From the sequence record PV340552.1: a stretch of DNA of 61,979 nucleotides; one strand, written 5' to 3'. The notes below the pieces were generated by a model. It saw nothing but the letters and a program-made list of their open reading frames with translations. It was not told where the DNA came from and ran no database searches. Position numbers and translations under genes: made by a program. This DNA comes from Escherichia phage PhiR12_3. This document shows positions 20,545-25,897 of this stretch, piece by piece (within the stretch, counting starts at the first letter, position 1; each line of letters starts with the position of its first letter).

Positions 20545-20962
20545 TATTCAGCAGGTGCTTGAACGCTGGGGCGCATGGGTGGCCAATAATCATGAGGATG
20601 TGAGCTGGTCGCCCATTGCCGCCGGATTTAAGGGGCTGATCCCGTCAAAGGTTAAATCACGGCCTCAGTGTACCGATGACGATGCGCTGATTATCAGCAA
20701 TTGCATGGCGCAACTGAACGTCAACAACAGCGATTTGCATGATTTTCTGTATGATTATTATGTGTTCGGGATGACGCTTATGTCACTGGGCCGTAAGCAT
20801 GGGCGCTCTGATTGCTGGGCCGGGCGGGTACTGCAAAAAGCAGAAGGTGTTATTGAGGGGATGTTGATCATGCAGGGAGTAAAGCTGGAAATGGACAGGT
20901 ACGTTGAGCGTGAACCATCAGGATCACAGGCCAGTCAGTTTGCCGGACGTGCGGGAAATTGA
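20537..20962 (+). CDS. Q: Late antiterminator Q (phage 21/82-type)
   Basis: ORF 20432..20962; likely start ATG 20537 ([14 protein letters not shown]...); position after ninH. Confidence 0.7.
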
Positions 20963-20986
20963 AAGCGCGAGTTTTTACTGTAGAAT
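20959..20986 (+). promoter_or_regulatory. Putative late promoter PR-prime
   Basis: TTGAAA (20959..20964) - 16 nt - TAGAAT (20981..20986) immediately at Q stop; followed by inverted repeat CTGTCTGCC...GGCAGACAG (about 21005..21040). Confidence 0.5.
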
Positions 20987-21161
20987 AGCTGCGGGTGCTT
21001 GAGGCTGTCTGCCTCGGGCATGCAGCCGTAAGGCAGACAGAGAAAAGCCCCAGTTAACATTACGCGTCTTGCAGGACGCTTAACATTAATCTGAGGCCAA
21101 ATCTATGACTTACAAACTTAGGTTAGCCTCTTACGTGCCGAAAGGCAAGGAGAAGTAGGCT

Positions 21162-21317
21162 ATGAAGCAGCAAAAGGCGATGTTAATCGCCATGATCGTC
21201 ATCTGTATTACCGTCGTAGTGATAGCACTGGTAACGAGGAAAGACTTCTGCGAGGTACGAATCCGAACCGGCCAGACGGAGGTCGCTGTCTTCGTAGACT
21301 ACGAATCTGAGAAGTAA
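21162..21317 (+). CDS. hok: Hok/Gef-family type I toxin
   Basis: 51 aa MKQQKAMLIAMIVICITVVVIALVTRKDFCEVRIRTGQTEVAVFVDYESEK, near-identical in pattern to HokD/RelF and Gef; short upstream overlapping ORF (mok-like) ends just before ATG. Confidence 0.85.
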   Translation: MKQQKAMLIAMIVICITVVVIALVTRKDFCEVRIRTGQTEVAVFVDYESEK

Positions 21318-21497
21318 GAGACCAGGCAGGGGAGTAATCTCCCGCCACCTCTGATGTGTCTGGCATCCTCAACGCACCCGTACTTTATTTGTCATATGCT
21401 CCGCAAAATGCAGGTTGTCGTTGCAACCAATGCGGTAATTTTTTGTGTGCGAGTGCTCAAAAAACGTTGATTTTCATAAAAGGATGATTTTATGCTG

Positions 21498-22083
21498 CCA
21501 GACCAGCGACCAGCGACCAGCGACCAGCGACCAGCGACCAGCGACCAGCGACCAGCGACCAGCGACCAGCGACCAGCGACCAGCGACCAGCGACCAGCGA
21601 CCAGCGACCAGCGACCAGCGACCAGCGACCAGCGACCAGCGACCAGCGACCAGCGACCAGCGACCAGCGACCAGCGACCAGCGACCAGCGACCAGCGACC
21701 AGCGACCAGCGACCAGCGACCAGCGACCAGCGACCAGCGACCAGCGACCAGCGACCAGCGACCAGCGACCAGCGACCAGCGACCAGCGACCAGCGACCAG
21801 CGACCAGCGACCAGCGACCAGCGACCAGCGACCAGCGACCAGCGACCAGCGACCAGCGACCAGCGACCAGCGACCAGCGACCAGCGACCAGCGACCAGCG
21901 ACCAGCGACCAGCGACCAGCGACCAGCGACCAGCGACCAGCGACCAGCGACCAGCGACCAGCGACCAGCGACCAGCGACCAGCGACCAGCGACCAGCGAC
22001 CAGCGACCAGCGACCAGCGACCAGCGACCAGCGACCAGCGACCAGCGACCAGCGACCAGCGACCAGCGACCAGCGACCAGCAG
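21498..22083. repeat. Heptanucleotide simple-sequence repeat (CAGCGAC)n, about 82 perfect copies
   Basis: Perfect 7-bp periodicity from 21504 to 22077 plus partial flanking units; no stop codons in any of three forward frames. Confidence 0.95.
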
Positions 22084-22171
22084 TAAATCAAGAAAGTCTG
22101 TAAAATCTGTTGAGCCGGAAATTACCGAACTGGCGAACTCATGGCTTAAATCTTACAGGCTTGATTACAAG

Positions 22172-24133: not shown

Positions 24134-24192
24134 ATTCCCCGCTCAGCGATAAATTAAGAAGCGTTGAGTGGGGAGAGTTCAGGATTGGCGAT

Positions 24193-25287
24193 TTGTTCTA
24201 TGTGAGCACAGGCTCGCTTATCTCCTCAGGAAGATTAAAACCAGGCAAAATCAAACGTGTTTCAGCAAAGAGCGATCAAAACGGTATCATCGGAGAGTTT
24301 GATACCGAGTTTATGGATGATGCAAGGCATTATGAAAATTTTATAAGCGTTAATTTTTTTGGAGATGCTTTTTATCATCCTTATTGTGCCAGCGTAGAAA
24401 TGAAGGTGCATGTTCTTACATTAAAATCAAGTAAGTCCGACTTTAATGCAAAGCGCGGACTGTATGTTGCCAGTATGATTAATAAAGCTTTAAAGGGGCG
24501 TTTTAATTATGGTCAACAGTTATCGAGTTCCAAACTCAGAGATGGAGAATATTTCATCTCATTACCAGTGAAAAATAATGAAATTGACTGGTTTTTTATG
24601 GATAATTATATAGAAGAGCTGGAAGCGGCCCATATAGAAGAGCTGGAAGCATACCTGATAGCTGCTGGGCTGAGTGATTACCAACTAACGGAAAAAGATT
24701 ATCTTATCCTGGAACATTTTAAAAATATTGAATTTTCAGGCTTTCCTGTTACTGAGTTATTCTCAGTGTGCAATACAGGAAACATATTGTCTAGAGACAT
24801 CATAGAAAATAGTGGGGATGTTCCTTATCTTTGTGCTAGCCGTGATAATAACTCTGTTAGTTCTTATATCGCCTATGATGACTCACTCTTGGAAAAAGGG
24901 AACTGTATTTTTATTGGTGGTAAGACATTCGTTGTAACTTATCAGGAGCGAGACTTTTTTTCAAACGACAGTCATAATTTGCGACTCTATGTTAACAATG
25001 AGGATGGAAGGACAAAGTTTGCTTATTTGGGCATTATTTCATGTATTTATAGGTCTATTTCACATAAATATTCATGGGGGGATAGTGTTAGTAATAGAAA
25101 AATTAAGAACGATGTTATTTGGTTGCCAGTGAAAAATAAGTCACCTGACTTTTGTTATATAAATGACCTTATTTCAGTTGTTCATAAGCTTGTCATTAAA
25201 GATGTTGTCCAGTACGCAGAACGCAAAATGAACGCATACAGGCAAGCTATAACAAGTCGCGGTTATGATGATTCTGGTGTCAGTTAA
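24193..25287 (+). CDS. HsdS-like specificity subunit (two target-recognition domains)
   Basis: 364 aa from TTG 24193 (first start-type codon in frame); WGEFRIGDLF-type N-terminus, central IEELEAAH/IEELEAYL coiled-coil spacer, second TRD; AT-rich. Confidence 0.7.
   Translation: MFYVSTGSLISSGRLKPGKIKRVSAKSDQNGIIGEFDTEFMDDARHYENFISVNFFGDAFYHPYCASVEMKVHVLTLKSSKSDFNAKRGLYVASMINKALKGRFNYGQQLSSSKLRDGEYFISLPVKNNEIDWFFMDNYIEELEAAHIEELEAYLIAAGLSDYQLTEKDYLILEHFKNIEFSGFPVTELFSVCNTGNILSRDIIENSGDVPYLCASRDNNSVSSYIAYDDSLLEKGNCIFIGGKTFVVTYQERDFFSNDSHNLRLYVNNEDGRTKFAYLGIISCIYRSISHKYSWGDSVSNRKIKNDVIWLPVKNKSPDFCYINDLISVVHKLVIKDVVQYAERKMNAYRQAITSRGYDDSGVS
24608..24650 (+). repeat. Tandem duplication (19 identical nt, 24-bp period) in central spacer of specificity gene
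   Basis: ATATAGAAGAGCTGGAAGC at 24608..24626 and 24632..24650. Confidence 0.9.
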
Positions 25288-25659
25288 AAAACATTTTACA
25301 ATCGTAAAAATCCTCATATCATGATAAGAATGGTTACATTGCCACGCAGCCGAATCCGCCGATGAGCGGGCTTTTTTGTTGCTGAAAAAGAAAACAACAG
25401 GTGGTTAGCAGGGTATCAGTTAATCGGGGAAATTTTTAAATACCTCACAATTCAGCAAGTTGATGATTGTCTGGCTGGCGGTGAATTTGTTAAAAATCGC
25501 AACGCATGGTGAATCCCCCTCAGCGGCGGGGCGGCTGGTGCGGGCTGGCATTTTTAATGTCACAGGCAATGTGAAAGACGCGGGTTCGGTGGCACCGGGC
25601 TGAACTCACCGGGAGGCACCCGGCACTATGCAGTTAACTGAAACCAGGTAATACTCTCA

Positions 25660-25685
25660 GGCCCCTCATCGCAGGGGCCTTTTTA
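25660..25685 (+). terminator. Rho-independent terminator
   Basis: GGCCCCT-catcgc-AGGGGCC followed by TTTTT. Confidence 0.75.
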
Positions 25686-25690
25686 CATGC

Positions 25691-25722
25691 AAAAAAAGCC
25701 CGCGCCGGGAGGCGCGAGCGGC
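25691..25722 (-). terminator. Rho-independent terminator (minus strand), forming bidirectional pair
   Basis: On minus strand CGCGCC-uccc-GGCGCG stem followed by U7. Confidence 0.6.
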
Positions 25723-25897
25723 AAGGAATAAAACAAAGAAAGTGAGTTTCGATTATTCACCGTGTGAATAATACCCGATGGTGATGAGACTGCGCAACTG
25801 CGCGGCCTTTTCGTTTTTACTGGCAGTTGTCTTTTGTATTTTCAGACTTCAGTCAGTCCTTATCTGATTCAACCCACTATCCCGGCCGGGAGGATTC

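Follow-up and report, generated by a model that had tools for sequence, protein, structure and literature searches.

The region between Q and nanS-p

The stretch analysed here, referred to below as the window, is the whole 61,979 nucleotides (nt) of DNA from Escherichia phage PhiR12_3 (PV340552.1), and it is identical to positions 1454893-1516871 of the genome of E. coli G6/7, a Symbioflor probiotic strain (NZ_CP060061.1). The prophage is 933W-like and lacks stx genes; its capsid gene is of the N4-gp56 type and its terminase is frameshifted. Sequence comparison supports a late region with the architecture of 933W-type Shiga toxin (Stx) phages, in an stx-less version. Between the gene for the antiterminator Q and the esterase gene nanS-p, and co-oriented with the late genes, lie a gene of the Hok toxin family, a long array of the heptamer GACCAGC and a restriction-modification (RM) gene pair. 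A preliminary description had taken these genes as cargo in the slot where Stx phages carry stx, downstream of the late promoter and under Q control. Its observations were confirmed in part and its interpretation supported in part. The inventory stood: Pfam, Rfam, Tandem Repeats Finder (TRF) and PADLOC recovered the Hok-family gene, 83 heptamer units, the RM pair, nanS-p and the holin, endolysin and Rz genes, and tblastn with the A and B subunits of Stx1 and Stx2 found no Stx-like open reading frame (ORF) in the whole window (best E 0.35). For position and regulation we favour, with a probability of about 0.7 for the explanation as a whole, a different reading. Positions 20915-25279 would form an accessory module of 4.4 kb that separates the Q gene from the late promoter pR' and is composed of (i) a type I toxin-antitoxin locus, hok/sok, that resembles hokW and has a promoter of its own and (ii) a two-gene BcgI-like (Type IIB/IIG) RM system, i.e., an RM subunit and an HsdS-like specificity subunit, made phase variable by slipped-strand mispairing in the heptamer array. 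The features of the module and of the adjoining Q gene are as follows.

20537-20962, + strand: antiterminator Q of the 933W/H-19B family (Pfam PF06530, E 1e-47)
20959-20986, + strand: predicted promoter of the hok mRNA, TTGAAA (20959), 16-nt spacer, TAGAAT (20986) (promoter scan, 10/12 matches)
20991-21385, + strand: hok/sok locus with leader, coding sequence, 5' element and 3' element
20993-21167: sok/hok leader (Rfam RF01794, 118 bits)
21162-21317, + strand: hok coding sequence (Pfam PF01848 HOK_GEF, E 3e-21)
21480-21500, + strand: leader of the RM gene with the Shine-Dalgarno (SD) sequence AAGGA and two start codons in different frames, ATG-1 at 21484 and ATG-2 at 21492 (from the sequence)
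21501-22081, + strand: (GACCAGC)83 simple-sequence repeat (SSR) (TRF, 83.0 copies, 100% matches, score 1162)
22082-24133, + strand: RM ("A") subunit, N-terminal PD-(D/E)XK nuclease and gamma-class N6-adenine methyltransferase with NPPY motif (PADLOC, Pfam)
24202-25287, + strand: specificity ("S" or "B") subunit, HsdS-like, with two target-recognition domains (TRDs) (Pfam Methylase_S twice, PADLOC Specificity_II)

The RM subunit matched the PADLOC model REase_MTase_IIG (PDLC03616) over its full length (E 3e-232) and the N6_Mtase family of Pfam. In an alignment of 22 homologues the residues P58-D59 and E77-x-K79 (PD-ExK) and N486-P-P-Y489 were all invariant. Repeat-free homologues of 72-73% identity were found in Neisseria (chromosomal, with an S gene adjacent), Providencia and Methylophilaceae, and the S product can be aligned along its length with that of the Neisseria partner gene. 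The S alleles differ among strains sharing a near-identical RM gene, as would be expected from TRD exchange. No HsdR or second methyltransferase gene was found in the module, where only the RM and S genes lie between hok and pR'. The BcgI-like Type IIB enzymes, which cut DNA to either side of a bipartite site, are built of an RM fusion subunit and a separate S subunit, in a 2RM:1S ratio (PMC3874165). The window pair, with nuclease and gamma-class N6-adenine methyltransferase in one polypeptide and a separate two-TRD HsdS-like subunit, looks BcgI-like (Type IIB/IIG) by its domain architecture. We also noted in the S gene a 24-nt tandem repeat (2.2 copies, 24610-24661) that encodes IEELEAAH/IEELEAYL in the central helical region of the protein, and that we take to resemble the short central repeats setting the spacer length in Type I HsdS (EcoR124I/II). 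The annotation pipeline PGAP is inconsistent about this gene, splitting the identical sequence into two fragments in some genomes and leaving it whole in others.

The heptamer tract at the start of the RM gene

The preliminary description had listed the heptamer array as a cargo element of its own. The array is there, but it is frame-continuous with the RM gene, between the two ATGs and the conserved N-terminus. In E. coli the gene starts as SD (AAGGA)-ATG-CTG-CCA-(GACCAGC)n, followed by SKSRKSVKSVEPEI; homologues free of the repeat begin M...SIEPNIADLANGWLKSY, and those of Neisseria and Providencia start about 10 amino acids before the conserved SVEPxI motif. The tract is open in all three frames, each encoding (DQRPATS)n, and database proteins exist for both starts, MLPDQRPATS... 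from ATG-2 and MILCCQTSDQRPATS... from ATG-1. The leader with both ATGs is kept in the diverged allele of strain E7-1N7, and the same leader is carried by 18 of the 24 IMG/VR contigs with the heptamer. Translation of each locus indicated that the gene lies in the frame of ATG-2, the start with a good SD, at n mod 3 = 0, and in that of ATG-1, a poor start with no usable SD, at n mod 3 = 1; the third frame has a TGA at 21485. At n = 83, as in the window, both ATGs are out of frame and their products (203 and 200 amino acids) stop just past the tract, with no in-frame start between the tract and an internal TTG at 22172. Read from the DNA, the array belongs to the RM subunit gene, whose 5' coding region it forms, and is not separate cargo.

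The mechanism that we propose is that the ancestral RM start would have been replaced by SD-ATG-(GACCAGC)n, and that the enzyme would be made only when the number of repeats brings a start codon into the frame of the gene. Changes in n would arise through slipped-strand mispairing of the 7-nt unit, and with them restriction and methylation would switch ON and OFF together, heritably and reversibly; the window allele would be OFF for both starts. Mismatch repair in E. coli handles only small loops, and 7-nt slippage intermediates should escape it.

Public annotation presents the locus differently. RefSeq/PGAP has a spurious minus-strand gene over the tract (21474-22091), called a "YXWGXW repeat-containing protein" or simply a hypothetical protein, and in every genome it annotates the RM protein (WP_001178557.1) from the internal TTG. 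Were translation to begin at that codon, the RM system would be constitutive and independent of the array, and indeed the PD-ExK motif lies 3' of the TTG. However, the TTG has no SD, homologues start about 40 codons before it, and six invariant residues (N18, W20, L21, S23, L26 and Y28) together with a conserved N-terminal helix lie upstream, so that we consider this start quite improbable. The opposite-strand call and the internal start conceal the link between repeat and gene, and surveys of annotated genes will miss it.

In 25 E. coli genome records the tract had between 16 and 99 units over flanks that were 93-100% identical. Seven of these genomes were in frame with ATG-2, nine with ATG-1 and nine (including the window) with neither, while the 2-kb RM ORF 3' of the tract was open in all 25. 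Strains G8, JNEC-KY173 and DETEC-S792 are among those in frame, and G6/7 and SCU-104 among those out of frame. The variation extends to close strains: the Symbioflor isolates differ from one another (G8, 99 units; G6/7, 83; G1/2, about 93), as do three O111:H8 isolates (83, 58 and 56 units). The unit is not divisible by 3, it lies in the 5' coding region, and its copy number varies among close strains with both frame classes represented, sequence features expected of a contingency gene.

We also looked for the heptamer elsewhere. A scan for (GACCAGC)5 with one genome per species, made without a control heptamer for comparison, found arrays of 5-18 units at more than 120 loci in many phyla, with many of the arrays in GC-rich phyla and none with this RM system; single metagenome-assembled genomes of Planctomycetota hold dozens of them. 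One array, in Pectobacterium carotovorum DSM 30168, is a 17-unit tract after M-S-T-S fused to an EcoRI_methylase-family protein (PF13651, E 8e-131), and therefore a DNA methyltransferase gene unrelated to the RM gene begins with the same heptamer in its 5' part. The recurrence in many phyla without this RM could favour an action of the array at the level of DNA, either as a Chi-like block modulating RecBCD near a self-cutting RM locus or as a cluster of RM recognition sites, and the minus-strand complement (GCTGGTC)n does match Chi (GCTGGTGG) at seven of eight positions in every unit. However, such a role leaves unexplained why the tract directly follows conserved start codons and is frame-continuous with the gene, and the Pectobacterium array is again a 5' coding fusion. 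This is the least probable of the explanations that we considered.

A further alternative is that the RM gene is a decaying pseudogene without a start, and that the array regulates nothing, having expanded selfishly or neutrally or being in part an artefact of assembly. Nine of the 25 genomes, the window among them, have the gene out of frame, PGAP finds no start before the internal TTG, and the frame states fall at about one third each, as expected without selection. Against decay, every genome examined, even where the DNA identity of the alleles falls to 82-84%, has an ORF that is uninterrupted before approximately codon 680, the catalytic motifs are invariant in the aligned homologues, and the SD and two-ATG leader is kept in diverged alleles. 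The tracts show little or no deviation from a perfect repeat, the S gene remains intact while TRD exchange diversifies it, and Pectobacterium has a convergent arrangement. We regard decay as unlikely, although it is the strongest competitor to a phase-variable RM gene.

Two cargo sites around the late promoter

The position of the module was established by pairwise blastn of the window against 933W. The corresponding segments, with the features found in them, are listed below.

19954-20914: 933W counterpart from ninG through most of Q
20915-25279: the cargo, without counterpart in 933W
25280-25379, + strand: late promoter block corresponding to pR'/qut/hairpin of 933W, homologue of 933W pR' (88% identity to 933W 20651-20750, 86% to the Stx1 phage)
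25295-25300 and 25317-25322, + strand: -35 TTTACA and -10 TATCAT of the pR' homologue (homology to the annotated 933W pR')
25336-25343, + strand: qut homologue ACATTGCC (homology to the annotated 933W qut)
25355-25377, + strand: hairpin plus T-run (homology to the annotated 933W terminator)
25380-25444, + strand: stx-equivalent slot, 65 nt, empty, standing in for 933W locus 1252-3248 (tR', tRNAs, stx2AB)
25445 onward: post-stxB segment of 933W, STnc100-like element and nanS-p
25474-25690, + strand: STnc100/PasD-type prophage small RNA with intrinsic terminator, 5' of nanS-p (Rfam RF02076, 149 bits)
25898-27871, + strand: nanS-p-type sialate O-acetylesterase, first late gene (Pfam DUF1737, SASA and DUF6645; 70% DNA identity to 933W L0105)
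After nanS-p: lysis genes for an S21-type holin, a lysozyme (endolysin) and Rz (Pfam)

NinG and NinH are encoded upstream of Q (ORF listing, Pfam, Rfam and PADLOC). The Q protein of the window has 70% amino acid identity to that of the Stx1 phage, but its final 16 codons or so differ from Stx-phage Q, and the DNA homology to 933W stops at 20914. The Q 3' tail that abuts hok was present solely in RM-bearing genomes (16 of 5426). In the 933W record pR' (20666-20693) overlaps the Q stop codon, and qut (20707-20714) and a terminator hairpin (20726-20748) come next. Differential RNA sequencing (dRNA-seq) and Term-seq of the Sakai Stx phages mapped the start of pR' transcripts to a point 258 nt before tR' that is "closely associated with Q" (PMC7547250). 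The Stx1 phage locus promoter (TTTACG-16-TATCAT) fits that mapped start, and the position of the window pR' is consistent with it. In the window the only homologue of a Stx-phage late promoter is the one at 25295-25322, 3' of the cargo, with the pR'/qut homologue directly after the stop codon of the S gene and not after Q.

These data bear on the proposal of the preliminary description that the cargo occupies an stx-equivalent moron site 3' of the late promoter, transcribed under Q and strongly expressed on induction. The order of the genes it gave (Q, cargo, nanS-p, lysis) is correct and the synteny with 933W confirms a Stx-phage-like layout, but the late promoter follows the cargo instead of preceding it. 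The cargo lies 3' of Q and 5' of nanS-p and the lysis genes, as stx does, but 5' of pR'/qut, whereas stx lies 3' of pR'/qut/tR' both in 933W and in the Stx1 phage; the true slot is the empty 65 nt. What speaks for the proposal, besides the position between Q and nanS-p in the orientation of the late genes, is a strong promoter-like site that, like pR' of 933W, overlaps the stop codon of Q. However, this site is placed as the hok promoter and its -10 falls within hokW homology, and in one relative (see below) the cargo and stx2b stand on opposite sides of pR'..tR'. Synteny contradicts the stx-equivalent site, and we judge it very improbable, slightly more so than a TTG start of the RM gene. As the cargo is not at the stx-equivalent position, Q-controlled expression of it is not expected; the RM gene of the window is, in addition, out of frame.

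The hok/sok locus has the parts expected of such a locus, i.e., a Hok peptide, a structured leader with the antisense target and 5' and 3' fold-back elements (20991-21004 complementary to 21367-21380, 13 bp with one bulge), and Sok transcription is predicted. Its Hok ORF and leader are intact, and 408 nt of it align with hokW/sokW of 933W at 91% DNA identity. The 933W copy lies near the right genome end on the other strand, whereas the window copy stands directly after Q, and a hok copy in that place was always linked to the RM module. The -35 of the hok promoter overlaps the Q stop codon; the homology to hokW/sokW begins at 20980 and so takes in the -10, with the 5' element of the hok leader next at 20991. 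We considered this promoter as a candidate for pR' and rejected it on its position as the hok promoter and the hokW homology of its -10. The prophage carries two hok loci, the second Hok/Gef family gene lying at 50026-50166, just 3' of an Ail/Lom gene.

No intrinsic terminator was found on the + strand between Q and 25355. The cargo may be transcribed from the hok promoter, from a weak internal promoter, by polymerase that reads on from the early operon beyond Q, or by a combination of these, and its transcripts would end at the pR' leader hairpin (25355-25377). Polymerase starting at about 25329 and modified by Q could not cover the cargo, which lies upstream of pR' and is therefore outside Q-modified late transcription. 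Any expression of the cargo linked to induction would presumably need read-through from the early operon past Q.

The relative mentioned above is the Stx2b prophage of E. coli 04-00955. In it, Q is followed by hok, (GACCAGC)16, RM, S and an additional ORF; next comes a stretch of 312 nt with 94.5% identity to pR'..tR' of 933W, and after this lie genes for tRNA-Ile, tRNA-Arg and tRNA-Arg, stx2bA, stx2bB and nanS-p. Since RM cargo and stx2b coexist here on opposite sides of pR'..tR', the site between Q and pR' and the stx site are two different sites. In other RM-bearing prophages the downstream slot holds tRNAs only. The map is thereby corrected: 933W-type prophages have two cargo sites around the late promoter, of which only the one 3' of pR' should be under Q control, and labelling any gene between Q and nanS-p as "stx-like cargo" would mispredict its regulation.

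The module appears to move. Homology to RM-bearing prophages with different nin regions begins exactly at the Q start codon (20537), and homology to those with different downstream content stops at 25379; from these sharp edges it follows that Q, cargo and pR' travel as one mosaic block. Besides, the segment with hok, array, RM, S and a pR'-like sequence (window 20980-25368) was also found in the nin region of other lambdoid prophages, 5' of a DUF1133-type Q, and is therefore a mobile cassette not bound to one site. The RM pair is present in about 0.5% of complete E. coli genomes and, with the exception of one 68% match, absent from 50,697 deposited phage genomes. A 79%-identical RM and S pair was seen in Salmonella enterica (GCA_007809255.1) beside conjugative-element genes (RAQPRD, TrbI-like) and not in a prophage. 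That contig starts 85 nt 5' of the called RM gene and lacks a heptamer run, as would be expected had the assembly broken in a repeat tract or close to one.

The STnc100 element following the empty slot is homologous to the Stx-phage segment between stxB and nanS-p, and its association with an esterase gene is already known (bioRxiv 10.64898/2026.05.13.724894). A full-length copy lies about 145 nt 3' of the predicted pR' start, with only a weak leader hairpin between them, and folding detected no significant structure in the predicted pR' leader through STnc100 (z = -0.9). With the stx slot empty, STnc100 could be the 3' end of a constitutive pR' leader transcript, by analogy with StxS in Stx phages.

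Elsewhere in the window we noted an IS150 within an MT-A70 methyltransferase gene (1479-3551), a RelE/HigA toxin-antitoxin pair (5051-5634) and a 101-amino acid remnant of a BsuBI/PstI-family restriction endonuclease beside a cI-like repressor (14398-14700). The C4 antisense RNA and isrK pair occurs in two copies, at 4001-4199 and at 13593-13780 (- strand) (Rfam, 65-79 bits), one overlapping the 3' end of an ORF6N-domain gene (4030-4707) and the other the 5' end and upstream region of a Rha-family regulator gene (12891-13664). Because the terminase gene (31446-33153) is frameshifted, the prophage may be defective.

Weight of the evidence and comparison with known systems

Several points count against a phase-variable RM module wedged between Q and pR'. 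Actual switching, the ATG used and anti-phage activity are what we infer from the sequence, and the action of Q at the 25295 promoter is deduced from homology. Six tracts contain an imperfect unit, which may reflect assembly errors, and long-read assemblies can be slightly off in the number of repeats. The nearly equal thirds of frame states give no sign of selection for either state. Tracts of 50-99 units exceed those of described contingency loci and would add a low-complexity N-terminal extension of 120-230 amino acids, which an active enzyme may or may not tolerate. The promoter scan found no convincing sigma-70 promoter between hok and the ATGs of the RM gene. Finally, the AlphaFold2 model of the RM subunit was poor (pLDDT 56, pTM 0.34). 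Foldseek matches from it to HsdM, BsaXI, BpuSI and PglX were weak (TM 0.13-0.24), and neither the single sequence nor a 22-sequence profile matched the PDB, solved BsaXI chains included. Given the poor structure prediction, the assignment of the nuclease fold rests on motifs and hidden Markov models.

If the switch works, Symbioflor probiotic and Stx-producing E. coli carry a prophage-borne, rapidly switching RM system, with effects on phage susceptibility, foreign DNA uptake, methylome heterogeneity and the reproducibility of methylome typing. More speculatively, the lambdoid prophages of Symbioflor and O111:H8 strains and the Stx2b phage might share a hypermutable heptanucleotide switch with two ON isoforms and one OFF state, resulting in clonal populations with mixed phage resistance and methylomes. 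It would amount to a prophage-borne phasevarion, and the Pectobacterium fusion, again a start codon with (GACCAGC)n, would mark a portable phase-variation cassette for DNA methyltransferase genes of Enterobacterales. This extended picture is tentative and, taken whole, we think it rather doubtful.

The components are all of known kinds, namely hok/sok, BcgI-like RM, SSR phase variation and lambdoid morons. In 933W, H-19B and Sakai Sp5/Sp15 the late order is Q, pR'/qut, tR' (StxS), tRNAs, stxAB, nanS-p and S R Rz. The window shares with them, all in the same order, the Q family, pR'/qut and first hairpin (86-88% identity), the STnc100-like element, nanS-p and the lysis cassette. It differs in that Stx-phage pR' overlaps the Q stop codon, whereas here 4.4 kb of cargo stand between the two and the Q 3' tail is replaced, and in that the tR'/tRNA/stx slot 3' of pR' is cut to 65 nt. 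The RM pair has the design of BcgI, BaeI, BsaXI, CspCI and NgoAVIII, an RM fusion with a separate HsdS-like S subunit (PMC3874165), but its RM gene has a 5' heptanucleotide tract, which the Neisseria and Providencia homologues lack.

E. coli is usually regarded as poor in simple-sequence contingency loci, and no description of this locus was found in the searchable full-text literature. Phase variation by SSR is established for Type III mod genes and for the Type I hsdM genes of H. influenzae (CGAGA[3-10]) and M. haemolytica (ACAGC[10-40]), in a survey of Type I systems that does not mention Escherichia or heptanucleotide tracts (PMC7383803). A phase-variable Type IIG RM enzyme has been described in C. 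jejuni NCTC11168 (PMC4889913). The window gene resembles all these in having a 5' coding repeat with a unit that is not a multiple of 3, variable in copy number among close relatives and with both frame classes represented. In contrast to them, it belongs to an E. coli prophage and has a 7-nt unit in much longer tracts (50-99 units in most complete genomes). Compared with described cases, what is new is the placement between Q and pR', the E. coli prophages that carry the system, including those of probiotic strains and a Stx2b phage, and the length of unit and tract. Possibly new as well is a design with two starts and three states, since each of the two start codons, which differ in frame, could give an ON state of its own, acting on a gene in which, unlike in those systems, nuclease and methylase are switched together.

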